The notes: generated from the sequence alone by a model not told the origin. Shown: positions 30,182-62,663, counted from the stretch's first letter. The stretch: 64,000 nt of DNA from an uncultured Gammaproteobacteria bacterium (GCA_964641255.1 CAZXMM010000001.1:409984-473983); one strand, 5' to 3'. A program made the numbers and translations.

Positions 30182-30184
30182 ATA

Positions 30185-41762: not shown

Positions 41763-42455
41763 ATGAATAAAACTAAACCTGCCAAAAACAGCGAAGTTCT
41801 GGTTGTCATTCCCGCTTTTAATGAGGAGCAAACCCTTCCGGGAGTAATCAGGGATTTAAAAGAACACGGCTACTTTACGATCTTAGTGGTTGATGACGGT
41901 TCAGGCGATGCTACCAGTGCTGTAGCAAAAGAAAATGACGTCATGATGGTGCGCCATGTGGTTAACAGGGGTCTCGGAGCTGCTCTAGGAACTGGGTTTT
42001 CTTTTGCTAAACAAAATAACTTCAATTATCTTGTTACCTTTGACGGCGATGGCCAACATGAGGGCCGTAAGGTCAAGAAGCTGCTGGAGCCCATCATTAG
42101 TAACCAGGCTGATGTGGTAATCGGCAGTCGGCTCATTGACAGAAAAAGTGCGCCTTTTAAGATAAGAGTCCTTAATTATATAGCTAACTTGATCACCTTT
42201 GTTTTATATGGGGTGTGGACTACCGACTCGTTGTCTGGGTTACGAGCTTTTAATAAAGTGGCCTTAGAAAAAATTCATATTAAAACCGATCGCATGGAAG
42301 TGAGCAATGAGTTTTTTAAAGAAATCAGGCGTAATAAATTGCGCTTTATTGAAGTGCCGATAAAAGCGATTTATACTGACTACAGTAAAGCGCACACTCA
42401 CAATTTGGATCCGTGGTCAGTAGGGTTTAAAATGGTTTTGCGACTCTTTAGATGA
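41763..42455 (+). CDS. GT2 polyprenyl-phosphate sugar synthase (Dpm1/GtrB-like)
   Basis: Motifs VLVVIPAFNEEQTL, VVDDGSGDAT and TFDGDGQHE. Confidence 0.8.
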   Translation: MNKTKPAKNSEVLVVIPAFNEEQTLPGVIRDLKEHGYFTILVVDDGSGDATSAVAKENDVMMVRHVVNRGLGAALGTGFSFAKQNNFNYLVTFDGDGQHEGRKVKKLLEPIISNQADVVIGSRLIDRKSAPFKIRVLNYIANLITFVLYGVWTTDSLSGLRAFNKVALEKIHIKTDRMEVSNEFFKEIRRNKLRFIEVPIKAIYTDYSKAHTHNLDPWSVGFKMVLRLFR

Positions 42456-42796
42456 CAATGATGGGAATTTTGCAACTGCTACTTTTAATTTTTTTGGCCT
42501 TTGCTTTAAGCAGAGTGGTGCTTCGTTTCAAAGATGGGCTCATTAAACTCCCGGAATTTGTTTTTTGGGGACTGCTTTTTACTTCCGCAATTGTTGGAGT
42601 AGTTCTACCCCAGGAAACCACTAGATTAGCAAAACTACTGGGTATTGGCAGGGGGGCGGATTTGATTGTCTATGCTTCGCTAGCTACATTGTTTTACCTA
42701 GTCTTTCGCATTTATGTCCTGATGGAGGATATTCGCCATGAGATTACTAGTGTAGTTCGTAAGATTGCCCTAGAGAAACAGAGTAAAAGTAGATGA
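42452..42796 (+). CDS. Small 3-TM membrane protein (DUF2304-like), partner of the upstream Dpm1-like GT2
   Basis: 114 aa with three hydrophobic helices. Translationally coupled (ATGA) to the GT2, an arrangement typical of DUF2304 proteins. Confidence 0.5.
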   Translation: MTMMGILQLLLLIFLAFALSRVVLRFKDGLIKLPEFVFWGLLFTSAIVGVVLPQETTRLAKLLGIGRGADLIVYASLATLFYLVFRIYVLMEDIRHEITSVVRKIALEKQSKSR

Positions 42797-43896
42797 ATAT
42801 TCTCTATCTTCTTGATTTTTTTCCAAAGACGAGTAAGGGTGGTGATGAATTGGCAGGTGGCGTCGAATCGCGCTATTTCTATCTAGTAGAGGAACTGCGA
42901 AAAAGGGGACATACAGTTTCTGTTATAGCCCGTTCTGGTTTATTGACCGAAGTGGCAAAGTCATACCAACCAAACATTTTTGATCGTCTCTTTATCTTTC
43001 AGTGGCGAGCCATTAAAGAGGGCTTGGCAATCGATTTTGATGTAGTCGAAGGGGGGAGTTGGATTACCTATTTTGCCGCCTATATGCTCGGGAAATTAAA
43101 GCGAAAGCCAGTAGTCTTTTGCTACCATGATGTAGCCATTGGCAAGTGGTCCATGCTTTTTGGAAAGCTTGGCTTTATCGGAGAACTGGGAGAGCGATTT
43201 ATTCTCGCCCTCAGACCGGACGCTTTTGTAGCTGTTAGCGAAAGCACCAAGGAAGCATTAATCCAAAACGGAGTCGTCGCCAGCCGGGTAAGAGTAGTTC
43301 ATAATGGCGTAAGTTACCAGGATTTAGCTAAGGTTAAAGTAGCAGGTAAAAAGTATGACATTTGCTGTGTGGCCCGCCTGGTGCCTTACAAAAATGTTGC
43401 CGATTTGCTAGCGGCGATTGCCAAGTTGATAAAGCGTCACCCCAAGTTGTCAGTGGCCATTGTGGGCCAAGGCCCACAGGAAAATGAACTTAAAAAGTTG
43501 GCGACAAAACTGGGGATAAGTAAGTTGGTTGATTTCAAGGGTCATCTACCCAGTCACCTTGACGTTTTGCGCCTAATCAAATCGTCAAAGATCTTTTGTT
43601 TACCATCGAGTTTTGAGGGTTTTGGCATCAGTGTCATTGAGGCTCAAGCTTTGGGCGTGCCGGTGGTGGTGTCAGATATCCCCGCCCTTAAAGAAGTAAG
43701 TCAAAATGGAAAAGCTGGCGTGGTGTTTAAACTTGGTGATACCAAGGAGTTAGCCCTAAAACTGGAAAATTTGTTGCACGACCAAAAATTATCACAAAGT
43801 TTGCAAATAGAGGGCCGAAAGAGCGCCCAAAGGTATTCTTGGCCAGTACTAGCAAGGAGGTTGAGTATACTCTATGAAAATTTGCGTACTCACTGA
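42793..43896 (+). CDS. GT4 family glycosyltransferase
   Basis: SSFEGFGISVIEAQALGVPVVVSDIPALKEV (E-x7-E). Confidence 0.8.
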   Translation: MNILYLLDFFPKTSKGGDELAGGVESRYFYLVEELRKRGHTVSVIARSGLLTEVAKSYQPNIFDRLFIFQWRAIKEGLAIDFDVVEGGSWITYFAAYMLGKLKRKPVVFCYHDVAIGKWSMLFGKLGFIGELGERFILALRPDAFVAVSESTKEALIQNGVVASRVRVVHNGVSYQDLAKVKVAGKKYDICCVARLVPYKNVADLLAAIAKLIKRHPKLSVAIVGQGPQENELKKLATKLGISKLVDFKGHLPSHLDVLRLIKSSKIFCLPSSFEGFGISVIEAQALGVPVVVSDIPALKEVSQNGKAGVVFKLGDTKELALKLENLLHDQKLSQSLQIEGRKSAQRYSWPVLARRLSILYENLRTH

Positions 43897-44932
43897 CGCC
43901 TGGACACCGGTTTGGGGTGGTGGCCAGGAGCATATTTGGCAAGTCTACACGCGCTTAGCGGTCCAAGGCCACCAGGTTGATATTGTAGTGCCAAATCTGA
44001 CTGCTCAGGATAAAAAAAACCTTCGGAGAGTGGAAAACCACGGCAATCTACGAATCATCAGGTTTGGCCCTGCTTTTATCTTTCCCAACCTCTTCGGTCG
44101 TTTCCTTTTTGTGCTTAACACTTTCTACTTTACCCTCAGTACTAAATATGATTGGTACCACAGTCATAGCCCATCAACATCACTATGTCTGCCATTATTA
44201 AAATTACTGGGCAGAAGAGTGGCCTATACGGTTCATGGAAAAGGCAAAGATCTTTTGGGGGGTGGGCTAGTTAATAAGTTAGGGGTTCTTTCCCTACTAA
44301 ACAATCTATTGGTTTATTGGATGCCGTATGACGTTCTTTTTTCAGCGGCGGCTTCGTCAATTGAAAGAAAACCCCGTGCCAGAAAGCTTATCATCATTGG
44401 TAATGGCGTAGATGTGGCCGAGTTTGATAAAGAAAAAGCCACTCCCGATCCTAAACATTTTACGATTCTTTGTATTGGTCGGAGAGACCCAGTAAAAGGT
44501 CTGGAACTACTTGAGCAAGCAGTTATTCTAGTGCAAAAGAAGTACCCCCAGGTTAGACTAAATCTTGTTTCCGGGAGAAAAAGAACTGCCAGAGACTTCA
44601 AAACTGCAGACCTGTATGTTTTACCATCACTATCAGAAGGGTTACCCATTGTGATCTTGGAAGCAATGGCTGCCAGTTTGCCAATTGTTGCCACGGCTGT
44701 GGGTGATGTCCCGAAGCTTCTCAGCGAATCAGGTGCGGGTCAAGTAGTTAAACCAGGAGAAATTTCTGCACTCGCGATTGGGATCGAACAAAGTATCAGG
44801 AGGGAAGCAAAACTCAGAGAAATGGGGACCCAAGGCTACCACTACGTCAAAAAACATTTTACTTGGAAAGAAGTAACAAAACTTGTGTTTGAGGGCTATC
44901 AGTCCTTGAAGCCTACAAAGACTAACGAGTAG
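43874..44932 (+). CDS. GT4 family glycosyltransferase
   Basis: PSLSEGLPIVILEAMAASLPIVATAVGDVPKLL (E-x7-E). Confidence 0.8.
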   Translation: MKICVLTDAWTPVWGGGQEHIWQVYTRLAVQGHQVDIVVPNLTAQDKKNLRRVENHGNLRIIRFGPAFIFPNLFGRFLFVLNTFYFTLSTKYDWYHSHSPSTSLCLPLLKLLGRRVAYTVHGKGKDLLGGGLVNKLGVLSLLNNLLVYWMPYDVLFSAAASSIERKPRARKLIIIGNGVDVAEFDKEKATPDPKHFTILCIGRRDPVKGLELLEQAVILVQKKYPQVRLNLVSGRKRTARDFKTADLYVLPSLSEGLPIVILEAMAASLPIVATAVGDVPKLLSESGAGQVVKPGEISALAIGIEQSIRREAKLREMGTQGYHYVKKHFTWKEVTKLVFEGYQSLKPTKTNE

Positions 44933-45675
44933 CTAAGGTATTGGTCTAGTGGGGTTCCTCGCTCTAACTTTAAGCTCTTGATATCCGTGGTCTGTTTCCT
45001 TCCGAGAAGTTTTCTGACGATAACAATAGGATTAATAAAATTAAGCGAGTACCAGAGGTTATCTCCTAAGAATCGGTAGTGTTTTATTCCAAGTTTTAGG
45101 GCCAATTGTCGCCACTCAGATCTAGTGTAGGGATACTCTTCTCCTACTTTCCAAAGTTTGGCCATTTCAGCCGCTACCTTAAAGAAACGATAGGGCAGGT
45201 TATAGGCATTTGGGACCGAGATAATAGCGATGCCCTGTGGTTTGAGCAGATCAAAATGAGCTTGATTGATTGTCAGACGCCTTTCACCACTAAAATGTTC
45301 GGTGAGGCCAAATGACATGGCTATATCAAATTTTCCCTTCAGTTCTTTAGGCAGATTAAGGGCATCGGCCTGAATGAATGTGGCCTGTAGTCCATTATGT
45401 TTAAAGAAGGATTTTGCCCTTGATAGTGCTTTGGGAGAATAATCCAGGATCGTTACTTTAGCGCCGTTTTTGGCCATGAGAGCCGCGTTGGTACCAGCTC
45501 CCGCTCCTATTTCAATCACTTGTAAGTCCTTTGCAAAGCTAAAGTGGCTATTGACTAAGGAAAGAATCCGTTGCCAGCGAATCGACAGTTCTTCTTGAGC
45601 TAAGTTAAATCGGTCTTCATTAGGCGTGACATCTCTCCATAGTTTATCCCATAGCTCAGGTGAGTTTTGTGTCAT
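44899..45675 (-). CDS. Class I SAM-dependent methyltransferase
   Basis: Motif I VIEIGAGAGTNAALMAKNGAKVTILDYS, then FDIAMSFGLTEHF. Start placed at the internal ATG (MTQNSPELW; the ORF is open to 45852) to leave a 51-bp divergent spacer before the ABC permease gene. Confidence 0.75.
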   Translation of the reverse strand: MTQNSPELWDKLWRDVTPNEDRFNLAQEELSIRWQRILSLVNSHFSFAKDLQVIEIGAGAGTNAALMAKNGAKVTILDYSPKALSRAKSFFKHNGLQATFIQADALNLPKELKGKFDIAMSFGLTEHFSGERRLTINQAHFDLLKPQGIAIISVPNAYNLPYRFFKVAAEMAKLWKVGEEYPYTRSEWRQLALKLGIKHYRFLGDNLWYSLNFINPIVIVRKLLGRKQTTDIKSLKLERGTPLDQYLSYSLVFVGFKD

Positions 45676-45726
45676 AAGACTTACTAGAGATAATACACCA
45701 AAATCGCTATACTTACGCCTGAGAAT

Positions 45727-46548
45727 ATGATTAAGCCGATTATCATTCGTCCTAGTGAGCCGTGGTGGAAAATTGATTTTGCCGAAATTTGGCAGTATAA
45801 AAATTTGTTGTATGTTCTGGCTTGGCGTGATGTAACTGTTAGGTATAAGCAAACAGTTCTCGGGATTCTCTGGGCAGTTTTTCAGCCGTTGGTGACGACA
45901 GGTATTTTTAGCATCTTCTTTGGAACCATCGCCAAAATTCCTTCCGATGGACTGCCTTACCCACTGTTCACTTTCATCGGCCTTGCTTTGTGGAATTTTT
46001 TTTCAAGTGGAATAGCAAATGCCAGCAACAGTCTCATTACTAACGCGAGTATAATTACTAAGGTATATTTTCCCAGGTTTTTAGTTCCCTTTGCTTCAAT
46101 TGCTACATCTGGTGTCGATTTTGCCATTACACTTTTATTAGTTCTGGTAGCAATTTTATTATATGGCTACATACCCTCGATCCAAACTTTATACGTCTTT
46201 CCCATGCTTTTAGTAATTCTTGTTTTAGCCATGGGAGGACTGGGTCTAATGACAGCAGCGATCAATATTAAATTCCGCGATGTCCGTTATATTCTGCCTT
46301 TCTTCATTCAAATTGGTTTGTACATTACGCCAATTATTTATCCATTATCTGTGATTCATGATTATAGGCGGTGGATTTTAATGTTGAATCCTATGACGGC
46401 AGTTATTGAGAGTAGCCGTGCTTTGGTTAATTCAGCCTCATTGGATTGGCTAATGATTTCGATTGGGTTTTTAGTTGCCTTGGGGTTATTTATCCTTGGG
46501 CTCTATTTATTTAGGAAAACAGAATATTTATTTGTTGATATATCCTAA
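45727..46548 (+). CDS. ABC-2 type polysaccharide/teichoic-acid exporter permease (Wzm/TagG-like)
   Basis: 273 aa with 6 TM helices. N-terminal WRDVTVRYKQTVLGILWAVFQPL is the ABC-2 family signature. Confidence 0.8.
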   Translation: MIKPIIIRPSEPWWKIDFAEIWQYKNLLYVLAWRDVTVRYKQTVLGILWAVFQPLVTTGIFSIFFGTIAKIPSDGLPYPLFTFIGLALWNFFSSGIANASNSLITNASIITKVYFPRFLVPFASIATSGVDFAITLLLVLVAILLYGYIPSIQTLYVFPMLLVILVLAMGGLGLMTAAINIKFRDVRYILPFFIQIGLYITPIIYPLSVIHDYRRWILMLNPMTAVIESSRALVNSASLDWLMISIGFLVALGLFILGLYLFRKTEYLFVDIS

Positions 46549-46550
46549 CA

Positions 46551-47768
46551 ATGCAACCTATTATTGAAGTTAAAAATCTATCAAAGAAATATAGCTTAGG
46601 TTCATATCAACCTTACGAAACCCTTCGAGATACTATAGTAAGCTTATTTAATAAGCAGGGACTACACTCTAATAAATTAAAAAAACAAGAATTCTGGGCA
46701 CTAAAGGACATTAATTTTGAAGTACAAAAAGGCGAAGTTATTGGCATTATCGGCAGAAATGGGGCAGGCAAAAGTACCCTTCTTAGAATTCTAAGTCGAA
46801 TAACGCTTCCGACAGAAGGCGAAGCAATTATGCATGGACGGGTGGCCAGTCTGTTGGAGGTGGGAACGGGATTTAGTCCCGAGCTAACAGGCCGGGAAAA
46901 CATTTTTTTAAATGGTGCAGTTTTAGGGATGGGGCGCAAAGAAATCCAACGAAAATTTCAGGCTATCGTTAATTTTGCTGAAATAGGCAAGTTCATTGAC
47001 ACACCAGTCAAATACTATTCATCAGGGATGTATACCAGGCTAGCTTTTGCAGTAGCGGCTCATCTAGAGCCCGAGATTTTGATCGTTGACGAAGTATTGT
47101 CAGTTGGGGATTTAAGATTTCAAAAGAAGTCTTTAGGAAAGATTGAAGATTTGACCCATGCGGAAGGAAGGACAGTTTTGTTTGTTAGCCATAATATGGG
47201 AGCTGTAAACCAATTATGTCGTCATACTATTCTTTTGGATGGTGGAAAAGTGGTGTTTTATGGAGCTACAGAGGAAGCCATTCGGTTGTATTCGCTGCAG
47301 AGCTTTGATAAAAACCAATTTAAAACTGTGCTTCAGGGGGATTTAGCGACTACACTAAAGCTAACCCAGATTTTTATTAACAATAAAGAGGCTAATAATC
47401 AGGTGCTATTGCCGAATCAAAGCATTGAATTTAAGGCGAAATTTAAGAGTAAGAAGAAAAACTCTAACCTAGTCATTAATTTTTCGTTATATAAAGATGG
47501 TCAGAGGCTTTTTACATTAAGTGATACAGAAAACCCGAGAGATCAACCCACAGGAAATTTTATCTCCGAATTTCAAATTCCAAGCTACTTATTACGTCCA
47601 GGTTATTATTCCATTGCCTTGGGTGGGTATCGTGTGGGCAGTGGTGAGTGGTGCTGGGGTACCGATTTAGCAGGATTTACCATAGCAGAGGTTTGGGACA
47701 GGAAAAATATACAAACTAACTTAGGAATTTTCAATCTACCCAATTATGGGCAACGAAAAAATGAATAA
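46551..47768 (+). CDS. ABC exporter ATP-binding protein (Wzt/TagH-like) with about 150 aa C-terminal extra domain
   Basis: Walker A GRNGAGKST, signature YSSGMYTRLAFAVA, Walker B ILIVDEVLSVGD. The C-terminal 150 aa (YKDGQRLFTLSD...GYYSIALGGYRV) is beta-rich, as in Wzt carbohydrate-binding domains. Confidence 0.8.
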   Translation: MQPIIEVKNLSKKYSLGSYQPYETLRDTIVSLFNKQGLHSNKLKKQEFWALKDINFEVQKGEVIGIIGRNGAGKSTLLRILSRITLPTEGEAIMHGRVASLLEVGTGFSPELTGRENIFLNGAVLGMGRKEIQRKFQAIVNFAEIGKFIDTPVKYYSSGMYTRLAFAVAAHLEPEILIVDEVLSVGDLRFQKKSLGKIEDLTHAEGRTVLFVSHNMGAVNQLCRHTILLDGGKVVFYGATEEAIRLYSLQSFDKNQFKTVLQGDLATTLKLTQIFINNKEANNQVLLPNQSIEFKAKFKSKKKNSNLVINFSLYKDGQRLFTLSDTENPRDQPTGNFISEFQIPSYLLRPGYYSIALGGYRVGSGEWCWGTDLAGFTIAEVWDRKNIQTNLGIFNLPNYGQRKNE

Positions 47769-48492
47769 ACAAAGAAAGGTAATTACGAGAAGAACATGCT
47801 TTCCCCTTTGGGATGTAATTTTATTACACAACAAAATAGAAAACTTACCTCGTTTATTTAGGGCTATGGAATTATTTTTATGGGAATTCGCCTTCTTTAC
47901 CAGCGTCAATCGTCACGAACCAGTTGATAAAAACTTACAGCCTGTCCCGTGGTTAACGTATCCTGCTATCGAATTTTTAAACAGATTAAATTTTAAATCT
48001 AAATCGGTTTTTGAATTTGGGGCAGGTAATTCCTCACTTTATTTTTCAGGAAAGGGTGCTAGTGTTTTCAGTGTTGAGAGTGATTTACACTGGTATAATA
48101 GGCTTAGTCTCAGGATAGCTAATAATAACAAGCTTTATTACGCCAAAACCAAGAAGGAATATCTAGAGTCAATTAAAAAACCAAGGACAAAATTTGATGT
48201 AGTTCTAATCGATGGGCTTTATAGGTATAGCAGTTCTTCATTAGCAATCAAATATCTCAAACCAACCGGTTTTATTATTTTGGATAATAGCGAGTGGTTT
48301 CCTAGGGCGTTTGCCCAGCTCGAAAGTTGTGGGTTTACGCACGTCGACTTTAGTGGCTTTAGCCCATTTAATGACTACACACTTACCACCTCAATTTTTT
48401 TTAAAAAGTCTAGTTCCTTTGATTTTGATTCTGATAAAAATGCTCACTACTCGATTGGCTCGATAAAGCACATTTCCCCCGAGGACCGTTAA
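47761..48492 (+). CDS. Putative SAM-dependent methyltransferase (class I fold)
   Basis: FEFGAGNSSLYFSGKGASVFSVESD (G-x-G motif I) and VVLIDGLY (motif post-I/II). ATG at 47761 overlaps the ABC ATPase stop (ATGAATAA). Confidence 0.5.
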   Translation: MNKQRKVITRRTCFPLWDVILLHNKIENLPRLFRAMELFLWEFAFFTSVNRHEPVDKNLQPVPWLTYPAIEFLNRLNFKSKSVFEFGAGNSSLYFSGKGASVFSVESDLHWYNRLSLRIANNNKLYYAKTKKEYLESIKKPRTKFDVVLIDGLYRYSSSSLAIKYLKPTGFIILDNSEWFPRAFAQLESCGFTHVDFSGFSPFNDYTLTTSIFFKKSSSFDFDSDKNAHYSIGSIKHISPEDR

Positions 48493-48502
48493 GTTATTAA
48501 TC

Positions 48503-49375
48503 ATGAAGATTTATATTTTGCCAGTCGATAAGGAATTGCAACCGCACAAACAACCTTTTAAGTATCCAAAACATAACAATTTTTATGGTGTTGAGCAGGA
48601 CTTTTATGCATTTTTAACTACACATCGTCAGTTGTTGACAACTGATGAAAATAAGGCTGATTGGCATTATCTACCGATTTATTGGACACGACGACATCAT
48701 AATAAAGGTACTAGCAATGCGGCCCTTAAAGAATTGCAAGAAAAAGTTGACAAAATCATAGTAAACTCAAAAAAAACCTTTACCATTTGCCAGTATGATG
48801 ATGGACCTATGGTCAAATTAGGCAAAGGACAAGTTTTTCTATCCTCAAGAAAGTCGTACGTTGGCCTTGATATTCCTTTATTATCCGCGACTCATCGGTT
48901 TCCGCTGTTTAAACAATCAAAAAAGTATTTAGCTTCCTTCGTTGGAAGATTCTCAACACACCCTATACGACAGAGAATGGCTGAAAAGCTGAGTAACAGA
49001 CCTGGTCTTTTTATTAAAGACGGTGAGATCTCAGAAGGCGACTTTGTTAAGTTGATTCTAAGATCATATGTTTCGCTTTGCCCCCGAGGCTATGGGGGAA
49101 GTTCTTTTAGATTTTTTGAATCTCTGCAGTTAGGTGTTGTTCCTTTAATGATAGGTAATGTAGATACGAGACCCTTTAAAGAGTTTATTGACTGGAATGC
49201 TATTTCTTTTTTTGCTCGCGACGAAAACTCTGCCCTAGCTATTTTAGAAAAAGCAAATCTTAAACAGCTACTCAATATGGGTCAGAGAGCGCTGTCATTT
49301 TATCGATCAGATCTAGACTATGGCAAATGGTGTAAATACGTTATTATGGAACTGAAAAGGAGACAGTCTCAATAG
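48503..49375 (+). CDS. Exostosin-like (GT47 family) glycosyltransferase
   Basis: C-terminal LCPRGYGGSSFRFFESLQLGVVPLMI matches the exostosin-family consensus C-P-x-G...S-x-R-x-x-E-x-x-x-x-G-C/V-x-P-V. Confidence 0.5.
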   Translation: MKIYILPVDKELQPHKQPFKYPKHNNFYGVEQDFYAFLTTHRQLLTTDENKADWHYLPIYWTRRHHNKGTSNAALKELQEKVDKIIVNSKKTFTICQYDDGPMVKLGKGQVFLSSRKSYVGLDIPLLSATHRFPLFKQSKKYLASFVGRFSTHPIRQRMAEKLSNRPGLFIKDGEISEGDFVKLILRSYVSLCPRGYGGSSFRFFESLQLGVVPLMIGNVDTRPFKEFIDWNAISFFARDENSALAILEKANLKQLLNMGQRALSFYRSDLDYGKWCKYVIMELKRRQSQ

Positions 49376-49496
49376 TCTAGACCTTACTAAACATTATCGC
49401 CGGCACATGCCAGCAAAATTGTGAAAGTTCGAGTCCTGAAAAGAAATATAAAATAATTGTTATTAGTCAAACTGTTTTTATAGAAATCATAAAAAG
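49376..49496. promoter_or_regulatory. Largest intergenic spacer in the locus (121 bp, AT-rich); putative internal promoter / operon boundary
   Basis: Sequence ...gaaatataaaataattgttattagtcaaactgtttttatagaaatcataaaaagATG. The flanking genes are otherwise overlapping or separated by fewer than 15 bp. Confidence 0.35.
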
Positions 49497-50366
49497 ATGA
49501 TAAATCTAAGTTTTTTTATCCCTGCCTATAACTGCGCGACAACCATTGCAGAAGCTGTTGATTCAATTTTCAAGGCTAATTTTGTTAAGGGCGATGAAGT
49601 AATTATTGTGGACGACTGTTCAACTGATCGGACACTAAGAGCTATAACGGCTCAGATGAAAAAGCACCCCGAAATTTTATTGCTAAAACATCCGTTCAAT
49701 AAGGGCGCTGGTGCGGCACGGAACACGGCAATTGAACAAGCTCGGAACAAGCTAGTCTTTTGTTTAGACTCGGACAATTTGCTAGTTCCCAATAGCGTAA
49801 GACCGCTACTTGCCTATCATATCGAAACTAAGTCTGACGCCAGTGCCTTTCAACAGTTGCATTTTTTCAAGAAAACTCCCAGGCATGTTACCCATAAATG
49901 GACATTTCATCCTGGTGTGTATACTCTATCTGAACATCTTTCAAAGTCACAGCTTCCTGGAGCAAGTGGTAATTATTTATTCTCGAAGCAGGCTTGGCTT
50001 AGGGCGGGTCGTTATCCAGAGTTTGTTGGGGCATTAGATTCTTGGTCTTTTGGCTTGCGTCTTCTCGCCACCGGTTCGAAGATGTCAGTCTTTGAGAATA
50101 CGCATTACTTCCATCGCTTTGGCCATGAATCAGATTGGGTGCGGTATTCTCAAAAAAAACACTTTTTTTCTTTAGCTGCTTTGCAGGTAATTATTCCTTT
50201 CCTGGACTTGCTTGATCCGAAGGACATTGAATATATTATGAGTAAAAAAGGAAGGTACAATTGGTTTGAGCACATAGAAAAAAGGCCAATTCGCCTCAGA
50301 AAAACACCGATACAAAGTAGCCGTATCAGAGAGCTAATAAATAAATTAGGTAGTATTAAATCATGA
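49497..50366 (+). CDS. GT2 family glycosyltransferase
   Basis: FIPAYNCATTIAEAVDSI, VIIVDDCSTDRT and CLDSDN. Confidence 0.75.
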   Translation: MINLSFFIPAYNCATTIAEAVDSIFKANFVKGDEVIIVDDCSTDRTLRAITAQMKKHPEILLLKHPFNKGAGAARNTAIEQARNKLVFCLDSDNLLVPNSVRPLLAYHIETKSDASAFQQLHFFKKTPRHVTHKWTFHPGVYTLSEHLSKSQLPGASGNYLFSKQAWLRAGRYPEFVGALDSWSFGLRLLATGSKMSVFENTHYFHRFGHESDWVRYSQKKHFFSLAALQVIIPFLDLLDPKDIEYIMSKKGRYNWFEHIEKRPIRLRKTPIQSSRIRELINKLGSIKS

Positions 50367-51010
50367 GACTACATTTAGGATGTGGAGAAAATTATTTGAA
50401 GGGCTATTGTAATATCGATTTTTCATCGACGCATCATACAGTTCAAAAAAAAGGTGTGGCTGACAGATATGCCAATATTCTCAACTTAAAATATAAGAAA
50501 AGTTCAATTGAAGAAATACGACTGCATCATGTTTTTGAGCACTTTTCTCGAGCTATAGCTTGTGCATTATTGGTTAGTTGGCATTCATGGCTAGAGATTG
50601 GGGGACTTCTCAGAGTTGAAGTTCCTGATTTTGAAAATACTAGTAAGATTTTTGGTAGACTCCTTTCTACTGAACACCAAAGAAATGTCGCAATGCGACA
50701 TATTTTCGGGTCACAGGAAGCTAGCTGGGCAGTGCATTATACAGGTTGGACTGAAAAGACCCTGACTGCTCTTCTTAATAAGCTCGGGTATTCCATTGAG
50801 AAAGTAAATAGATTTACATACAAAGGAACATCAAATCTGGAAGTTTTCGCGCGTAAAGCGCAAAATGATCTTTCAAACGACGCTTCCACTAAAGTAGTCA
50901 AAAGTTTTCTGAAATCTTTCACTCTTGACGGATCTACATCTGAAAAAGAGATTTTATCTGTTTGGCTAAGTGAGTTTAAAAGCCAAGTAGCTAAAGGAGT
51001 ACGGAAGTGA
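50363..51010 (+). CDS. Putative class I SAM-dependent methyltransferase
   Basis: N-terminal MRLHLGCGENYLKGYCNIDF (LxLGCG motif I), then HVFEHF. Confidence 0.5.
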   Translation: MRLHLGCGENYLKGYCNIDFSSTHHTVQKKGVADRYANILNLKYKKSSIEEIRLHHVFEHFSRAIACALLVSWHSWLEIGGLLRVEVPDFENTSKIFGRLLSTEHQRNVAMRHIFGSQEASWAVHYTGWTEKTLTALLNKLGYSIEKVNRFTYKGTSNLEVFARKAQNDLSNDASTKVVKSFLKSFTLDGSTSEKEILSVWLSEFKSQVAKGVRK

Positions 51011-51741
51011 AAGGTGTCAGCGTGGTTATCCCCACTTATAATCGGGAAAAGTTTTTAACGGCAACCATAAATAGTGTACTTAAACAGACTGTCCCCGTTT
51101 TGGAGATTCTGGTTTGTGATGATGGGTCAATGGACCACAGTCGTCAGGTGATAAAGAAAATTGGCAGTACAAAGGTCCACTGGATTGCTGGATCCCACAC
51201 CGGATTGCCAGCTGTAGCAAGAAATCGAGGTATTGAACGGTCAAAAGGGGAGTTGATTGCATTTTTGGACAGTGATGATACCTGGCTACCAGAAAAAATG
51301 GCCAGGCAACTACCTTTTTTTGACGACCCCAAAGTACTAGGGGTAAGCGCGAATGCTTTACGGATGGTGAAAACTATTGAGAGTGGTCGTGTTATCGTTG
51401 GAAACAATAGCAATCTTTCTGTTGCTTCTCTTTTGTTCCAAAATTCAGTCATCTGCAGTTCAATGGTGGTTCGTCGATCTGCCTTGGAAGCTACTGGGGA
51501 CTTCTCTGAAAAAAATTCACTACGAGGATTTGAAGACTATGCCCTTTGGCTTAGGGTGGCAGCCCTTTTTCCGATCAGCTTTGTTGCCGAGCCGCTAGTT
51601 CGTTATCGTGACGAGTTTCAAGACAGTCTGCGTTATGAGTCCGAAAGGGATGTTGTGAAGCAAAAACTTGAAGTATTAAAAAATTTTCTTCCCTGGCTAA
51701 TTTACCATTTTCCATTAATTATTTCATACCACATGCAATGA
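51007..51741 (+). CDS. GT2 family glycosyltransferase
   Basis: GTG start. VSVVIPTYNREKFL, LVCDDGSMDHS and FLDSDDTWLPEK. Confidence 0.75.
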   Translation: MKGVSVVIPTYNREKFLTATINSVLKQTVPVLEILVCDDGSMDHSRQVIKKIGSTKVHWIAGSHTGLPAVARNRGIERSKGELIAFLDSDDTWLPEKMARQLPFFDDPKVLGVSANALRMVKTIESGRVIVGNNSNLSVASLLFQNSVICSSMVVRRSALEATGDFSEKNSLRGFEDYALWLRVAALFPISFVAEPLVRYRDEFQDSLRYESERDVVKQKLEVLKNFLPWLIYHFPLIISYHMQ

Positions 51742-53450
51742 TTGAGATTGGATTATTGGTTGTGGCAACAGGTAAATATATTCAATTTGTCGATCCTTTA
51801 TGGAAGTCAACTAAAAGGTACTTTCTTAAGCAACGCAATATCAGAGTAACTATGTTTGTTTTTACTGATTCTGATACTGTTCCAGCTGGAACTAAACGCC
51901 TGTTTTGGGAACATCGCGCCTTCCCCTTCGCCACTCTTCTTAGGTACCATGTGTTTACAAAGTACCAAAAGACCCTAAAGAAGATGGACTACCTCTTCTA
52001 TTGCGATGCTGACATGGAATTTGTTTCACTAGTAGGCGAAGAGATTCTTGGTAAACGAGTCGCCACCCTTCACCCAGGCTTTTATACTAAAGCTCGAAAA
52101 GATTTTACTTATGAAAATAATTCTAAGTCGACTGCCTATATTTCTCCTGATCAAGGGAAAGCGTATTATTGCGGTGGTTTCAATGGGGGAGAGGTAAAAG
52201 AATTTTTGAATATTGCCCGGATTCTAAAAAGGAATATTGATAAAGATTTGAAAAATGGCATTATCGCTTCACATAACGATGAAAGCCACTATAATTGGTA
52301 TCTCGCTAAACACCTTCCCACGTTGGTTCTTTCACCCTCATACTGCTATCCAGAAGATCTCTTACCAGCGGTTCGGGCGAAAGATCTGAAAAGCGGGATT
52401 AATAAGTTAATTTGGTTTCCGAAGCAACTGTTGGAACTAAAACCAAAATTAATCGCCAGAAGCAAAGACCATAGCAAAATTCGGTATACCGGGATTCGAC
52501 TGTTAATCGAAACACTTATCCAGTCTAAAGAAGTTCTTTTCCTGAAGGGTTTTACTATTCTTAACAGGGTTAGAGTTGAATGGGTTAGGCTAAAATGGCA
52601 CTACTTAAGATTGAAGGAGCAAAGCTATCGTAATTATCTTTTGCAACCGCCTATAAAGGTTATTCAGGTCTCACAAAATAGCGCTGCTAACAGAATGCTC
52701 CTCGTCACAGTGGCCTTTAATTGCGTCTGGACTATAGAGGCGCAAATAGATGCTTTAAAAAAGAACCTTCAGGATCCTTTTACTCACATAATAATTGATA
52801 ATTCTAGTGATAGTGCTAGACGATCAGAAATAGAACAAGTGGCTCGCACAAAGGGGGTGGGTTACATCTCTTTGCCGAAAACACCTTCACATATTTCACC
52901 GAGCATGTCTCATGGACTAGCTCTCAATTATGCTTGCAACTGGACTAGTAAGCACCTTGCGAAGTATGTAGTAATTGGCTTTTTGGATCATGATATTTAT
53001 CCATTCAAGTCGACAAATCTATTTCCAATTATGAAAAAGCAGCCCTTTTACGGCCTCTTACAAAATAGAGAAGAAAAGTGGTACTTATGGCCGGGCTTCA
53101 TGTTTTTTAATAGAGATTTCAGCAACAGTAAGCAAATAAATTTTCTTCCTCAAAATGGTCTTGATACTGGTGGAAGGAATTGGGAATCTATCTACCGCCA
53201 CATAGAAAAATCTTCAATTGAATTTCCCCAGCAGTTTTACGTATCCCTCAGTGACTATAAAAAGCTTCGCAATATTAATGCATTTCCTAAAATACCAATT
53301 TCCAAAAAGAATCAGCTAGTGAAAAAAGATCAATTAATAGAGATAATAGATAGCTGGGTGCATGTGTTTAATGCGTCGAATTGGCGAAAAGCAAATGATA
53401 AGGAAAAAGAAGTTAAAGAATTCTTACTATGGCTAAACAAGCATTCATAA
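51738..53450 (+). CDS. Two-domain glycosyltransferase: N-terminal GT6 domain (ABO blood-group / alpha-1,3-Gal(NAc) transferase family) fused to a C-terminal GT-A (GT2-like) domain
   Basis: N-terminal half aligns motif by motif with mammalian/bacterial GT6: FVFTDSD, DYLFYCDADMEFVSLVGEEILGKRVATLHPGFY, FTYENNSKSTAYISPDQGKAYYCGGFNGGEV and NDESHYNWYLAKHLPTLVLSPSY. C-terminal half (from about aa 300) reads LLVTVAFNCVWTIEAQI...IIIDNSSDSARR...YVVIGFLDHDIYPF, which looks GT-A. Confidence 0.8.
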   Translation: MIEIGLLVVATGKYIQFVDPLWKSTKRYFLKQRNIRVTMFVFTDSDTVPAGTKRLFWEHRAFPFATLLRYHVFTKYQKTLKKMDYLFYCDADMEFVSLVGEEILGKRVATLHPGFYTKARKDFTYENNSKSTAYISPDQGKAYYCGGFNGGEVKEFLNIARILKRNIDKDLKNGIIASHNDESHYNWYLAKHLPTLVLSPSYCYPEDLLPAVRAKDLKSGINKLIWFPKQLLELKPKLIARSKDHSKIRYTGIRLLIETLIQSKEVLFLKGFTILNRVRVEWVRLKWHYLRLKEQSYRNYLLQPPIKVIQVSQNSAANRMLLVTVAFNCVWTIEAQIDALKKNLQDPFTHIIIDNSSDSARRSEIEQVARTKGVGYISLPKTPSHISPSMSHGLALNYACNWTSKHLAKYVVIGFLDHDIYPFKSTNLFPIMKKQPFYGLLQNREEKWYLWPGFMFFNRDFSNSKQINFLPQNGLDTGGRNWESIYRHIEKSSIEFPQQFYVSLSDYKKLRNINAFPKIPISKKNQLVKKDQLIEIIDSWVHVFNASNWRKANDKEKEVKEFLLWLNKHS

Positions 53451-54070
53451 ATGTAACATACGAATCTCTTGTCACACCACCACTTGCTATTGGTGCGTGG
53501 ATACGAAAGGATTTTCCTGGTTTTGATAGGGATTACTTGGCAATCCATTGTTTAATCAGAAAGTATCAGCCCAAAACTTTCCTTGAAATTGGAACAAGCA
53601 CGGGGTTGGGAACCAAAGTAATTTGTACAGCTATTGGGATTAGGAAAGCCCATTGGTGGAATTTATTTGGTTCCCACGACGTATCAACACCAAAGGTTTT
53701 TTCAATCGATGTACCTCCAGGTACTGATCCAACAATTATTTATCCCGCAAAAGAAGACGGTCACCCAGATAAGACAGGAAAATACTGCAAATTTCCCTTC
53801 ACGCAGCTATTTGGCGACTCCCAAACATTTAATTTTAAACCGTACTATCCATTAGATGGTTGGTTCATCGATGGCAAACATAACTTTGAATTTGCTAGTA
53901 AGGATACAAGACAGGCTTTGAAGGCTAAAGCTAAGATAATTATCTGGCATGATATGCAAATCGAAGATGTTGCTCGTGCTGTAGAAATCGTTATGAGAAA
54001 GCAGAAACGATATAGCTGTTATCGTGTTGCGCAAACTCGAATCGCTTTCGCTGTACGCAAGATATCATAA
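53429..54070 (+). CDS. Class I SAM-dependent methyltransferase (CmcI/TylF-like O-methyltransferase fold)
   Basis: FLEIGTSTGLGTKVI (motif I), DGWFIDGKHNFE and IIIWHDM. Confidence 0.55.
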   Translation: MAKQAFINVTYESLVTPPLAIGAWIRKDFPGFDRDYLAIHCLIRKYQPKTFLEIGTSTGLGTKVICTAIGIRKAHWWNLFGSHDVSTPKVFSIDVPPGTDPTIIYPAKEDGHPDKTGKYCKFPFTQLFGDSQTFNFKPYYPLDGWFIDGKHNFEFASKDTRQALKAKAKIIIWHDMQIEDVARAVEIVMRKQKRYSCYRVAQTRIAFAVRKIS

Positions 54071-54957
54071 TGATTATTGTCAAATTAGTGGGTGGCCTGG
54101 GAAACCAAATGTTTCAATACGCGACCGCCCGCGCTCTTGCCGAAAGACACCGTTGTGAATTAAAGCTAGATACTAGTTGGTTCCGCAAGCCTGGATCAGA
54201 TACCCGCCGTTCTTACGGTCTAAGAGTTTTCAATACCGTTAAGGCCCAAGCCACGAAACGGGAAATTAATGCTGTCAAACATCGGAGCGGAAACAAATTG
54301 GACCGAATATTAAGAAGCCATTTTCGGGGTTTTTTTCCGTTGCGTAAAAGCTATTTCTTTGAAGAAAGCGCTCTTCATTTTAGCCCGGAAGTCCTTAAAC
54401 TGACCGATAATTCTTATTTGGAAGGCTTCTTTCAGTATTTGGCGTATTTTCAATCGATTGAAAAAATATTGCAGGATGAATTTCAGTTTATTAAGCAACC
54501 CAACAAGAAAAACAAGCTAATTTTAGATAAAATAGAGATACAAAATTCAGTGTCTGTCCATATCAGGAGAAAAGACTATATTTCTAATAAAAATTATCGT
54601 AGTTATTTTGCCCATCCTAGTAGGCTATATTATAAAAAGGCTATGGAAATGATTAATCGAAAAGTGCCCAGTCCTGACTTCTATATTTTTTCTGATGATA
54701 TACCTTGGGTAAAAAAGCATTTTAAAAATAATCATAACATGCATTTTATTTCCCATAATAAAGGGAAAAACGATTTTGAAGACATGAGACTTATGCAAAG
54801 CTGTAAACACAATATCACTGCCAATAGCTCCTTTAGCTGGTGGGCAGCATGGTTGAACCAAAATCCTCACAAGATCGTAATTACCCCCCGTAAATGGTAC
54901 CAAGACAAATTAGCCGAAATGACTGGGAAGTTTCCTCCTAATTGGACAAAGCTATAA
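54070..54957 (+). CDS. GT11 family alpha-1,2-fucosyltransferase
   Basis: Diagnostic GT11 motifs: MIIVKLVGGLGNQMFQYATARALA, SVHIRRKDYIS and ANSSFSWWAAWLN. Confidence 0.85.
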   Translation: MIIVKLVGGLGNQMFQYATARALAERHRCELKLDTSWFRKPGSDTRRSYGLRVFNTVKAQATKREINAVKHRSGNKLDRILRSHFRGFFPLRKSYFFEESALHFSPEVLKLTDNSYLEGFFQYLAYFQSIEKILQDEFQFIKQPNKKNKLILDKIEIQNSVSVHIRRKDYISNKNYRSYFAHPSRLYYKKAMEMINRKVPSPDFYIFSDDIPWVKKHFKNNHNMHFISHNKGKNDFEDMRLMQSCKHNITANSSFSWWAAWLNQNPHKIVITPRKWYQDKLAEMTGKFPPNWTKL

Positions 54958-54960
54958 ATT

Positions 54961-55764
54961 ATGAAACCACTCATTTCTTATAAGAAAAACGTGTTCTCCC
55001 AGAATGGTGAAGACGGAATTATTGCAGAAATTTTTAGACGTTTGAGGGTGGATAGTGGAGTTTGTATCGAATTTGGGGCTTGGGATGGAATTCATCTAAG
55101 TAATATCCGTAATCTGGTTATAAACGGTTGGACTGGAATATTTATTGAATCCGATAAGGAAAGGTTTAATCAACTAAAAAAGAATTATGCACAAAATAAA
55201 AATGTTATAAGCATTAACGCTACTGTCGGCTCTGGTATAAATAGCCTCCGAGCTATCTTTAGAAGAAAAGGTATCTCACTTTATTTAAATAAAATAGATT
55301 TTTTGAGCATAGATATTGATGGCCTGGATCATCATATTTTTGAGTCGTTAGATTTTAATCCTAAATTAATCTGTATTGAAGCAAATTCTGCCTTTTCACT
55401 AAATGAAAGTCTAAACCAAACTCTCTATTCGAAGGAAACGGGGAGATCTCTTCAATGCTTAACCACGATTGGTGAGTCTAAAAACTATGTTCTCATTTGC
55501 TTCACGGGCAATTGCCTTTTTTTAAGAAAGGATTTATTGGAGCAAACCAATTTGGAAGAGTTGTCTGTTAAAGAAGCTTACACAGCTTTCTTGGACTACC
55601 TAACAGAAAATGAGCGCCAATGGTTATTTCTAGTAAATCTAGGTTTAGTATTTCCGTACCGCCATTTCAAAAATACTTATCTTTCTCTTCAAAGTTTACA
55701 TTTATTGCCTCATCAAATTGCCCTCGCTATTGGCAAACTCTTAAGAGCTAAATTACTCGGATAA
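54961..55764 (+). CDS. FkbM-family methyltransferase (putative)
   Basis: N-terminal FSQNGEDGIIAEIF...GVCIEFGAWDG resembles the FkbM-domain start (SQxGED...DxGA). Confidence 0.45.
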   Translation: MKPLISYKKNVFSQNGEDGIIAEIFRRLRVDSGVCIEFGAWDGIHLSNIRNLVINGWTGIFIESDKERFNQLKKNYAQNKNVISINATVGSGINSLRAIFRRKGISLYLNKIDFLSIDIDGLDHHIFESLDFNPKLICIEANSAFSLNESLNQTLYSKETGRSLQCLTTIGESKNYVLICFTGNCLFLRKDLLEQTNLEELSVKEAYTAFLDYLTENERQWLFLVNLGLVFPYRHFKNTYLSLQSLHLLPHQIALAIGKLLRAKLLG

Positions 55765-55771
55765 TGGATTT

Positions 55772-56848
55772 ATGAATCGTTTTAAACCAGTAAAACTATC
55801 GGTAATAATGCCTGTATATAATGGTGCACTTTATCTACGAGAATCTATTGATAGCGTTCTTCGTCAGACCTTCACAAATTTTGAATTCATCATTATTGAT
55901 GATGGTTCTACTGATAAAACACAAGAAATTGTTGAGTCTTATTCTGATTTACGAATTAAGCTAGTAAAAAACTCTAAGAATTTAGGAATAGTTGACAGCC
56001 TGAATATTGGTCTGGTTAAAGCAACTGGTGAGTACGTCATCAGAGTAGACGCCGATGATATCTGTGTTAGAACTCGTTTTGAGAAGCAGGTTAAGTTTAT
56101 GGATGGTCACCCTACAGTGGGTGTTTGTGGAAGTGCCATAAGGATTTTTTCTAGAATTCCTGTGATTGGTATGACAATTGTAAAGCCTGTTAGCCATCGT
56201 GAGATCGTCTCGGAAATGCTTTTTCGCAATGTTATCCAACACCCAACTGTCATTTTGAGGAAAAACCTTTTCCAAAAGTACAAGCTTCGCTACCGGAGTT
56301 TATATCCACATGCGGAAGATTATGATTTGTGGTCCCGGGCCGGTAGGCTTTTTGATTTGGCAAATCTTCGTGAAGCCTTGTTGTATTACCGCTATCATTC
56401 AAAATCGATAGGCGCTACTTCTAATATCGTTCAACAAGCTAATGTTAGACAAGTCAGGCAAGAATATTGGAAATCATTGGGCATCAAACTTGATCCCGAC
56501 GAAATTGCTTTATTGCACAGTGTCTGCGACCTGTCTGTTGCTCCGATAGACGAGTTTACAGCTGCAAAGGTAGGAGCAGCCTTGTTAAGCTTTCAGTCCC
56601 AAGTGAATAAAAAAAATCTCTTTCCGCCGAAGTTTATTTCTAAACATACCTCCAAGCAGTGGTACGCTTTTTGTGCCAAACTCTCCACTCTTGGCCTAGT
56701 GGCCTGGAGATTATATTGGCAGTCTCCTCTTAGCAAAGCGGCAGCTTTGAGCATTTCAGATCGATTAATTTTCCTAATGCATTGTTCATTAAAAATGAGC
56801 GACTTTACTCTCCAAAGGAAACTTGCCAGACTGATTGCCGGTTGGTAG
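55772..56848 (+). CDS. GT2 family glycosyltransferase with about 120 aa C-terminal extension
   Basis: LSVIMPVYNGALYL, FIIIDDGSTDKT and RVDADDI. Confidence 0.8.
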   Translation: MNRFKPVKLSVIMPVYNGALYLRESIDSVLRQTFTNFEFIIIDDGSTDKTQEIVESYSDLRIKLVKNSKNLGIVDSLNIGLVKATGEYVIRVDADDICVRTRFEKQVKFMDGHPTVGVCGSAIRIFSRIPVIGMTIVKPVSHREIVSEMLFRNVIQHPTVILRKNLFQKYKLRYRSLYPHAEDYDLWSRAGRLFDLANLREALLYYRYHSKSIGATSNIVQQANVRQVRQEYWKSLGIKLDPDEIALLHSVCDLSVAPIDEFTAAKVGAALLSFQSQVNKKNLFPPKFISKHTSKQWYAFCAKLSTLGLVAWRLYWQSPLSKAAALSISDRLIFLMHCSLKMSDFTLQRKLARLIAGW

Positions 56849-56857
56849 TCTCAATAT

Positions 56858-60683: not shown

Positions 60684-60688
60684 CTTTA

Positions 60689-61906: not shown

Positions 61907-62663
61907 AAACGAGGAAAACTTTATCTGGTTTGCCCTCAATTCCGTTCGCAAATTCGCCACTGAGATGCTCGTCTTTGATGATAATTCCACTGACAAGACC
62001 GCTGAAATTTTGAACTCAATCCGCGACCCTAAACTGAAAGTTACTAGAGGGACCTTAACCACGGCAGGAGACATTCGTAATACTATGCTTAAGGAAACCA
62101 AAACAGATTGGTTTCTTTTGCTGGATGGAGATGAAGTCTGGAATGAAAAGACACTTGAGAAACTACTGGATTTCTTGGAGGATTGTCCTCGGGATGTTTG
62201 GGGAGTTGTGATGAGAACAAGAAATTGTATCGGAGACGTCTATCATTATCAGCCCGAAAGTGCGGGACAATACACCCTGTTAGGTAGAAAGGGTAATCTA
62301 AATATTCGCGCCTATCGGAAACTTCCCAACCTACAGTGGTGTTGGGATTATCCCAGGGAAACTTACTGTGATTTGAGAGAAAATCCTATCAATAACCAAG
62401 ATGCTCATTTGCGTTTTTTTGATGACCACTATTGGCATATGACCTATTTGCCAAGGACGAGTAGCACGGCAGAGCGCAAACATCCCCAGCGACTCAAGAC
62501 GGAATGGGGAATTAAAATTAAAAATGTATCGGAATTACCAGAAGTTTTTTTTGTTGATCGGCCGTCCATGGTTCCTAATCCCTTACAAAATAGGAGGTCT
62601 AGCTACACATTGCGTGCCAGCCTAGTGAGCCCACTGTTGCGCTTGAAAAGGAGTCTACAATGA
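61875..62663 (+). CDS. GT2-like (GT-A) glycosyltransferase
   Basis: HTLVKNEENFI, LVFDDNSTDKT and LLLDGDEVW. Confidence 0.65.
   Translation: MIKITTHTLVKNEENFIWFALNSVRKFATEMLVFDDNSTDKTAEILNSIRDPKLKVTRGTLTTAGDIRNTMLKETKTDWFLLLDGDEVWNEKTLEKLLDFLEDCPRDVWGVVMRTRNCIGDVYHYQPESAGQYTLLGRKGNLNIRAYRKLPNLQWCWDYPRETYCDLRENPINNQDAHLRFFDDHYWHMTYLPRTSSTAERKHPQRLKTEWGIKIKNVSELPEVFFVDRPSMVPNPLQNRRSSYTLRASLVSPLLRLKRSLQ

Follow-up and report, generated by a model that had tools for sequence, protein, structure and literature searches.

A Wzm/Wzt-type glycan exporter with a probable divergent carbohydrate-binding domain, encoded beside candidate cap methyltransferases

Is a bacterial glycan handed to its exporter only once its growing end has been methylated? 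The question is raised by a locus in a 64,000-nucleotide stretch of DNA from an uncultured Gammaproteobacteria bacterium (GCA_964641255.1 CAZXMM010000001.1:409984-473983; the whole stretch is termed the window, and positions are counted from its first letter), in which an ATP-binding cassette (ABC) transporter of the Wzm/Wzt type and an overlapping methyltransferase gene occupy positions 45,727 to 48,492. In E. coli O8 and O9a (Klebsiella O5 and O3), the polymer is made in the cytoplasm and its growth ends when the chain is methylated (O8) or methyl-phosphorylated (O9a); a C-terminal module of the Wzt ATPase binds this cap and licenses export. A first-pass annotation of the window had noted a Wzt-like extra domain on the ATPase and methyltransferase genes on both sides of the transporter, and had proposed that a similar logic may operate here. 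The best explanation of wzm-wzt is an ABC exporter for a lipid-linked glycan assembled in the cytoplasm. The extra domain is very probably a carbohydrate-binding domain (CBD) of the Wzt_C type, and export that depends on a methyl cap is the account that we favour, with some reserve. The features that carry the argument are as follows (SAM, S-adenosylmethionine; NBD, nucleotide-binding domain).

45727..46548, plus strand: wzm, ABC-2 type permease, 273 amino acids (PF01061 ABC2_membrane, E 3.6e-20)
46551..47768, plus strand: wzt, ATPase, 405 amino acids (PF00005, E 1.3e-22; ABC_tran at residues 51-182)
46551..47300, plus strand: NBD of Wzt, residues 1-250 (PF00005)
47313..47768, plus strand: CBD of Wzt, residues 255-405 (151 amino acids), with the stop codon (all-beta AlphaFold2 model; profile and fold homology)
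47746..48492, plus strand: stand-alone class I (COMT-like) SAM methyltransferase, 248 amino acids (family profile, AlphaFold2, Foldseek)
44899..45675, minus strand: divergent class I SAM methyltransferase, 258 amino acids (Methyltransf_25, E 2.9e-17; Methyltransf_11, E 5e-14)

The exporter and the C-terminal domain of its ATPase

Positions 45727-47768 encode a Wzm/Wzt-type ABC-2 glycan exporter. The wzm product has at least five hydrophobic segments, is 62-64% identical to the syntenic Wzm of two related loci (L082 and L084), and gives a weak NCBIfam match to galactan Wzm/RfbD (E 8.5e-17) that lies far under the 380-bit cut-off. Only 2 nt separate wzm from wzt. Across a set of 74 full-length Wzt homologues, 46-68% identical overall, the Walker A residues K74/S75, the signature YSSGM (156-160), the Walker B residues D180/E181, and H214 are invariant, as is Y247 of the hinge helix (74/74). 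When PDB sequences were searched with Wzt, the best match was Wzt of Aquifex aeolicus (8DKU/7K2T, E 4e-63), followed by TarH/TagH; TarGH/TagH, mycobacterial Wzm-Wzt and KpsT make up further polysaccharide-exporter relatives in that database. Scans for promoters and terminators gave chance-level signal only, and the window contains no tRNA.

The NBD stops near residue 250 and about 150 residues remain beyond it. These had been described in the first-pass annotation as a beta-rich extension, a description upheld by the AlphaFold2 model built with the 74 homologues, in which residues 269-378 form ten beta strands and no helices. The predicted local distance difference test (pLDDT) score of this block is 90-98, exceeding that of parts of the NBD, and a hydropathy scan revealed no transmembrane segment in the extension. 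The model and the Foldseek matches given below agree that the extension is neither disordered nor of a fold foreign to carbohydrate binding.

The relationship of the extension to Wzt_C was evident only in some types of search. On its own, the domain falls below the gathering cut-off of the Pfam family Wzt_C (PF14524; 19.5 versus 30.4 bits, E 1e-3, residues 277-378), and a phmmer search of PDB sequences with the isolated C-terminal 160 residues yielded a chance-level match only (Dot protein, E 0.78). Homology surfaced only via full-length or profile searches. In the hidden Markov model search that the first-pass annotation had proposed as a check, the match to Wzt_C is sub-threshold in the protein itself but is found among its full-length homologues, 42 of 74 of which match Wzt_C at E<=0.01 (best 1.1e-14), the remaining 32 giving no match at that level.

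Three other approaches agree with the matches of the homologues. A profile of the Wzt family aligned with chain residues 20-376 of A. aeolicus 8DKU/7K2T, the CBD included (E 6.5e-99), and scored 335 bits for full-length A. aeolicus Wzt versus 297 bits for NBD-only chains. By fold comparison with Foldseek, 8dku_A was the best match; full-length WzmWzt structures (8DKU/7K2T) gave E 1e-36 over 404-418 columns, and NBD-only chains E 1e-25 over 243 columns. Finally, hhalign comparison of 24 sequences of the CBD subfamily with 12 classic Wzt_C domains, all of them above the Pfam threshold, gave a probability of 86.9% (E 4.2e-6, 111 columns). We regard homology to Wzt_C as established by these four independent lines, and conclude with high confidence that the extension is a divergent carbohydrate-binding beta-sandwich of this type, in keeping with the Wzt-like domain originally proposed.

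The domain belongs to a subfamily marked by LRPG at 348-351, G358-G359, W367-x-W369, W382 and G392. This subfamily is rare: when 1.84 billion representative proteins were searched exhaustively with phmmer, only 114 clusters were recovered at E<=1e-3, in nearly all of which the CBD lies at the C-terminus of proteins of ~400-440 residues, or fragments thereof. The median identity to the window Wzt is 31% for the CBD versus 70% for the NBD. The CBD thus diverges at a far higher rate than the NBD, which is how a domain that sets specificity would be expected to behave. Six separate stretches of one 1120-residue protein (P0313) resemble the window CBD, a hint that proteins other than Wzt ATPases can also carry the domain in tandem copies.

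The closest solved relative has a known ligand. The O antigen of A. aeolicus is capped by 3-O-methyl-mannose or 3-O-methyl-rhamnose, and its isolated CBD binds 3-O-methyl-D-mannose and does not bind mannose (PMC9445017). The methyl pocket is lined by Leu300, Thr346, Ala348 and Trp362, the last of which stacks on the methyl group, and a W362L substitution abolishes binding; the CBD also touches downstream sugars and modulates ATPase activity (PMC9445017). Thr346 aligns with A356 of the window Wzt, where 71 of the 74 homologues have Ala, Gly or Ser, and Ala348 aligns with G358, which is kept in 69 of 74. His350 aligns with Y360, at a position most often filled by His in the family. The counterpart of Trp362 is W369 by HMMER (aromatic in 72/74) and W367 by hhalign (Trp in 68/74), an equivalence drawn from alignment and not from superposition. 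These two residues lie two apart on a single predicted strand (367-378) and would therefore face the same side of the sheet. As judged from the alignments, the position of the methyl-stacking Trp appears to be conserved in the Wzt family of the window.

Methyltransferase genes around wzt

The gene that overlaps the 3' end of wzt begins at ATG 47746 (a 23-nt overlap) or at ATG 47761 (an 8-nt overlap). By itself its 248-residue product has no Pfam or NCBIfam match, scoring 13.4 bits against Methyltransf_24 (cut-off 26.3), and its relatives are proteins of 220-240 residues that carry the label 'SAM-dependent methyltransferase' in a few sources. At the level of the family, 40 of 45 aligned members match Methyltransf_24 at E<=1 (best 7e-8), and the family profile matches PDB entries 3CVO ('methyltransferase-like protein', E 1.4e-7) and the O-methyltransferase-like TrmR (E 2e-3). 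The AlphaFold2 model has a pLDDT of 91.6, and the 50 best Foldseek matches listed all have the class I methyltransferase fold (methyltransferases or aminopropyltransferases), mostly COMT, CCoAOMT and TrmR at E ~1e-6. Motif I reads FEFGAGNS, with E90, G92 and G94 invariant. D156, D180 and N181, which are invariant or nearly so, presumably resemble the Asp/Asp/Asn metal triad of COMT, a likeness of residues and not of superposed structures. The protein is a class I COMT-like SAM methyltransferase, as the first-pass annotation had it, despite the lack of a Pfam match of its own.

Members of this family recur beside transporter genes. At least 589 matching stretches are present in species-representative genomes, and the best 80 loci were inspected. 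In 18 of the 80, an extended wzt (open reading frames (ORFs) of 414-494 residues) lies directly upstream on the same strand, and most of these 18 also carry wzm, giving the order wzm-wzt-methyltransferase. They represent at least six phyla and include cyanobacteria, Chloroflexota, Bacteroidota, Nitrospirota, Desulfovibrio and Nitrosomonadales. All 12 of the Wzt C-terminal domains scanned among them pass Pfam Wzt_C.

A second view of gene order comes from the six closest loci of the window Wzt subfamily (within L081-L087), which were compared gene by gene; neighbourhood comparisons for this subfamily drew on seven loci in all. In five of them the gene that abuts or overlaps the wzt stop codon encodes a methyltransferase of another family: Methyltransf_11-type orthologues abut wzt in L084 and L087, an FkbM gene followed by the same Methyltransf_11 type is found after wzt in L086, and a Methyltransf_23/11 gene abuts it in L081 and L082. 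In the sixth (L085), a weak RXYLT1_C (GT47-related) gene abuts wzt and is followed by a weak Methyltransf_23 gene. The position of the methyltransferase is therefore fixed while its family changes (non-orthologous displacement), which argues that what the transporter is coupled to is methylation itself. Together, the two independent synteny tests are good evidence, at the level of gene order, that methylation is functionally tied to export by this type of transporter. A one-to-one co-variation of methyltransferase family and CBD subfamily was considered and rejected, because elsewhere the partners of the methyltransferase are classic Wzt_C proteins. In two of the related loci (L086, 9691-11169; L087, 8160-9668), a Methyltransf_24 domain is fused N-terminally to a GT2 glycosyltransferase 46-53% identical to the GT2 encoded at 49497-50366 in the window. 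Such a fusion is a Rosetta-stone-type link between methylation and glycosyl transfer, and the fused protein is possibly a terminator enzyme.

The divergently transcribed gene upstream of wzm, likewise called a methyltransferase in the first-pass annotation, is confirmed as such by its Methyltransf_25 match, and its product matches generic small-molecule methyltransferases in the PDB. A start at TTG 45852 (ORF 44899-45852, minus strand) was rejected for its 126-nt overlap with wzm; ATG 45675, the sole other in-frame start in the first 90 codons, leaves a divergent spacer of 51 bp. The slot between the GT4 gene and wzm is variable, being filled by this methyltransferase in the window, by an epimerase in L081 and L084, and by MBOAT and AlgX genes (O-acetylation) in L082.

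Four further genes of the window have methyltransferase-like products.

50363..51010, plus strand: 215-residue protein, distant homologue of the Methyltransf_11-type methyltransferases found after wzt in relatives (BLASTP)
53429-54070: weak Methyltransf_24 gene
54961-55764: weak FkbM gene
62660-63445: Methyltransf_11 enzyme (E 8e-20)

For the first of these, assignment as a methyltransferase is weak and is drawn from BLASTP similarity to the L084 and L086 methyltransferases (23-25% identity, E 2e-9); it has no Pfam match and no PDB sequence match. Some of the methyltransferases in the array surely methylate internal residues of the glycan.

Proposed methyl-cap-dependent export and its alternatives

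In the mechanism that we propose, the chain would be built by glycosyltransferases of the array, namely the GT4 pair upstream of the transporter and the GT47 and GT2 enzymes downstream. Its non-reducing terminal sugar would be O-methylated and elongation would stop. The cap methyltransferase would most likely be the overlapping 248-residue enzyme, which is the best candidate because of its adjacency to wzt. The methylated end would then be bound by the C-terminal domain of Wzt, with the conserved Trp367/Trp369 pair forming part of the pocket, and translocation of the polymer by the transporter would follow only once the cap is bound. After export, the product would probably be a substrate for the many nearby GT-C enzymes, which would decorate or transfer it on the far side of the membrane. 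The glycosyltransferases concerned in the cytoplasmic steps, together with a conserved gene pair upstream of them, are the following.

41763..42796, plus strand: GT2 (230 amino acids) and DUF2304 (114 amino acids), a GacI/GacJ-like polyprenyl-phosphate sugar synthase pair (PF00535, E 1e-25; PF10066, E 2.5e-19)
42793-43896, plus strand: GT4, candidate backbone builder (Glycos_transf_1, E 4e-43)
43874-44932, plus strand: GT4, candidate backbone builder (Glycos_transf_1, E 2e-22)
48503..49375, plus strand: GT47 (exostosin)-like glycosyltransferase, 290 amino acids (PF03016, E 4.8e-20)
49497..50366, plus strand: GT2 conserved with this Wzt subfamily, with homologues in L082-L087 (PF00535, E 5.8e-29)

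The cap-then-export logic suggested by the first-pass annotation draws support from the conserved order of wzt and methyltransferase genes and from the binding of a 3-O-methyl cap by the closest solved relative (PMC9445017), and in its full form we hold the mechanism to be probable, with moderate confidence. Several observations weigh against it. The cap chemistry is inferred. HMMER and hhalign place Trp362 of A. aeolicus on different Trp residues, and the counterpart of A. aeolicus Tyr233 in the alignment is Ser248, the invariant Tyr247 falling one position earlier. In about 75% of the loci that carry a member of the 248-residue methyltransferase family, no wzt lies within 10 kb, and the window CBD is of the LRPG/EWxW subfamily while the same methyltransferase family is elsewhere accompanied by classic Wzt_C domains. 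Moreover, methyltransferase-like genes number five or six in the array, and the candidate capping enzyme among them is singled out by its adjacency to wzt. Published terminators usually bear a coiled-coil ruler (PMC11231755), and no coiled-coil ruler protein was identified in the window.

Export might depend on a cap that is not a methyl group. The CBD would then read a terminal sugar or another substituent, for example one added by the GT47-like enzyme, with Kdo (3-deoxy-D-manno-2-octulosonic acid) in Klebsiella O12/O4 as the model, and the methyltransferases would modify internal residues. Wzt CBDs do read Kdo or methyl-phosphate besides methyl caps (PMC9445017, PMC11231755), and that of the window falls in a distinct subfamily with few members. 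The GT47-like gene would suit this explanation too, since its orthologues (54% identity) are kept one to two genes past wzt in L084, L086 and L087 while the intervening methyltransferase swaps to unrelated families. However, were methylation of no consequence for export, it would be difficult to account for a methyltransferase gene right next to wzt in 18 unrelated loci and in five of the six nearest relatives, and the position of the methyl-stacking aromatic residue of the A. aeolicus CBD appears to be conserved. On balance we consider a non-methyl cap unlikely.

Less probable still, and in our view distinctly so, is that the CBD is a general polymer-binding or regulatory appendage, serving as a tether or in ATPase coupling, which needs no terminal modification, the methyltransferases merely tailoring the glycan. 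The sub-threshold Wzt_C score of the domain and the failure to find a ruler-type terminator would fit such a role, as would the contacts with downstream sugars and the modulation of ATPase activity reported for the A. aeolicus domain (PMC9445017). Yet in every capped-glycan system described in PMC9445017 and PMC11231755 a terminal modification is recognised by the carbohydrate-binding module of Wzt, and the faster divergence of the CBD relative to the NBD, alongside a variable set of downstream genes, is the behaviour of a specificity reader.

A teichoic-acid-type (TagGH/TarGH) exporter of a polyol-phosphate polymer, to which the best NCBIfam matches of the ATPase (TagH models, E 2e-59) and the presence of TarH/TagH among its PDB matches might point, is very improbable, as the TagH scores are far under cut-off (202 versus 538 bits), WzmWzt O-antigen transporters, with the CBD included, lead the PDB matches whether ranked by sequence, by profile or by fold, and the neighbourhood encodes GT2, GT4, GT6, GT11 and GT47 enzymes with no glycerol- or ribitol-phosphate transferase family among the Pfam matches of the scanned genes.

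Returning to methyl-cap-dependent export, the genes upstream of the transporter allow a more elaborate form of it. The GT2 and DUF2304 pair also lies directly upstream of GT4-GT4-wzm-wzt in L082 (3850-4877) and L084 (1123-2133), so that the entire block of GT2+DUF2304, GT4, GT4, wzm and wzt is syntenic in these two loci and the window; the GT4 pair is syntenic with wzm-wzt in L083 also (37-45% identity across L082, L083 and L084). GacI/GacJ are a polyprenyl-phosphate sugar synthase and its activator (PMC9574508), and the related pair in the window may initiate or decorate the exported polymer. From the conserved block, the polymer may be built on a polyprenyl-monophosphate sugar. It would then receive a methyl cap, be checked by the rare LRPG/EWxW subtype of the Wzt CBD, leave through the ABC transporter, and serve as an en bloc donor for one of the ~20 GT-C enzymes. 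Such a scheme, which we regard as doubtful, would combine the cap-checkpoint ABC route with the multicomponent GT-C route of Gram-positive bacteria. As a separate and equally doubtful possibility, the COMT-like family of the 248-residue enzyme might represent a class of cap methyltransferases that work without a ruler, widespread but so far uncharacterised.

The wider locus and comparison with known systems

The first-pass annotation had also held that both major polysaccharide export routes lie side by side in this locus, on the strength of two flippase genes.

16560-18008: MOP/Wzx-family flippase (Polysacc_synt_3, E 1.5e-48), 28 kb upstream of the transporter
60689-61906: MOP/Wzx-family flippase (Polysacc_synt, E 5.3e-13), 13 kb downstream of the transporter

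The claim is only partly right: both Wzx-family flippases are there, yet the window gave no match to a Wzy polymerase family, several of its polytopic proteins being without assignment, and the flippases fit a decoration scheme as well. An ORF adjoining the second flippase (56858-58033) was considered as a Wzy polymerase and rejected, since it has no transmembrane segments. In Gram-positive rhamnan-type pathways the ABC transporter exports the backbone, and decoration with lipid-linked sugars takes place outside the membrane, through Wzx/GtrA flippases and GT-C enzymes (PMC9574508). The context of the locus, which also encodes a GtrA-like protein, would fit this Gram-positive decoration logic equally well, and the flippases may act in decoration instead of serving a distinct polymer of the Wzx/Wzy kind.

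The whole window amounts to a single long glycan locus, and its density of extracytoplasmic glycosyltransferases is unusual. About 21 polytopic membrane proteins are encoded in the region 2307-41760, and 12 have GT-C-type Pfam matches (PMT_2, YfhO, PTPS_related; DUF2142 at 59220-60683). Six ORFs in 22073-34973 match a single PMT_2 gene of L082 with 28-32% identity and look like a paralogue array. On the other side of the transporter, positions 51738-53450 encode a two-domain protein of 570 residues with an N-terminal GT6 domain (E 8e-43), a helical interdomain linker and a 42% identical orthologue in L082, and a GT11 fucosyltransferase-like gene (E 6e-35) is found nearby at 54070-54957. A GT6 and GT11 pair makes blood-group-like epitopes in some bacteria. 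The GC content is 0.36-0.40 from wzt to ~56 kb (46000-56000) versus 0.43-0.45 in the flanks. This low-GC stretch covers the methyltransferase, GT47, GT2, GT6 and GT11 genes and looks like a variable or horizontally exchanged cassette. Beyond it, a co-directional sub-cluster (55772-63445) comprises genes for a GT2, a soluble 391-residue protein that has no family match, a polysaccharide pyruvyl transferase (E 3e-31), the DUF2142 protein, the Wzx-like flippase, a further GT2 and the Methyltransf_11 enzyme; it may specify a second glycan or a side chain with pyruvylation.

The proposed logic of termination, capping and export is shared with the WbdA-WbdD-Wzm-Wzt system of E. coli O8/O9a. There, the large WbdD protein joins a coiled-coil ruler to a methyltransferase domain, with a kinase domain added in O9a. 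Unlike WbdD, the methyltransferases that flank the window transporter are single domains of 248 and 258 residues. No WbdD chain appeared among the PDB sequence matches of either, no kinase family was matched for them, neither has a long coiled coil, and in the compact AlphaFold2 model of the 248-residue enzyme no helix exceeds 14 residues. The parallel drawn in the first-pass annotation therefore does not extend to a WbdD-like capping enzyme.

WzmWzt of A. aeolicus is the best match by sequence, by family profile and by fold, and it shares the same architecture of NBD, hinge helix and C-terminal beta-sandwich. It differs in that overall identity is ~30% (Foldseek), the direct match of the CBD is very weak, the window CBD is in the separate LRPG/EWxW subfamily, and lipopolysaccharide (LPS) is perhaps not involved for the window polymer. 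The S. pyogenes group A carbohydrate (GAC) and L. lactis rhamnose-containing cell wall polysaccharide (Rha-CWPS) pathways resemble the window in the ABC export of a backbone, the GT2 and DUF2304 pair, the Wzx/GtrA flippases and the GT-C enzymes (PMC9574508). For these pathways, PMC9574508 describes neither a cap-reading CBD nor a methyl terminator; in addition, the window showed no genes for rhamnose biosynthesis, and its ~21 polytopic GT-C-like proteins far outnumber those of rhamnan-type pathways.

Another close parallel is the 'TET' operon of the P. syringae common polysaccharide antigen (CPA), which consists of wzm, wzt with a Wzt-like domain, a SAM methyltransferase and a glycosyltransferase, and for which a cap interpretation has been given; the variable region begins at wzt, and fusions of glycosyltransferase and methyltransferase occur (PMC7820976). 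As in TET, a stand-alone SAM methyltransferase gene comes right after a Wzt_C-bearing wzt in the window and is followed by glycosyltransferase genes, variability sets in from wzt onwards (the drop in GC in the window, and downstream genes that differ among relatives), and some relatives have glycosyltransferase-methyltransferase fusions. TET differs in that the P. syringae glycan is an LPS-linked rhamnan made with a WbdA-like double-GT4 polymerase. The cap-checkpoint mechanism itself is thus already known, and understanding of it is unchanged by this locus; what differs is the small stand-alone methyltransferase without kinase or ruler. New are the rare, divergent Wzt CBD subfamily, which is missed by standard Pfam annotation, and the small ruler-less methyltransferase family that recurs right after wzt in many phyla, both of them found only in uncultured or uncharacterised organisms. 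The latter family, now labelled 'hypothetical' or 'SAM-dependent methyltransferase', gains a testable role, and a wzt with a C-terminal beta domain immediately followed by a methyltransferase gene of any family becomes a usable annotation signature for capped-glycan export.

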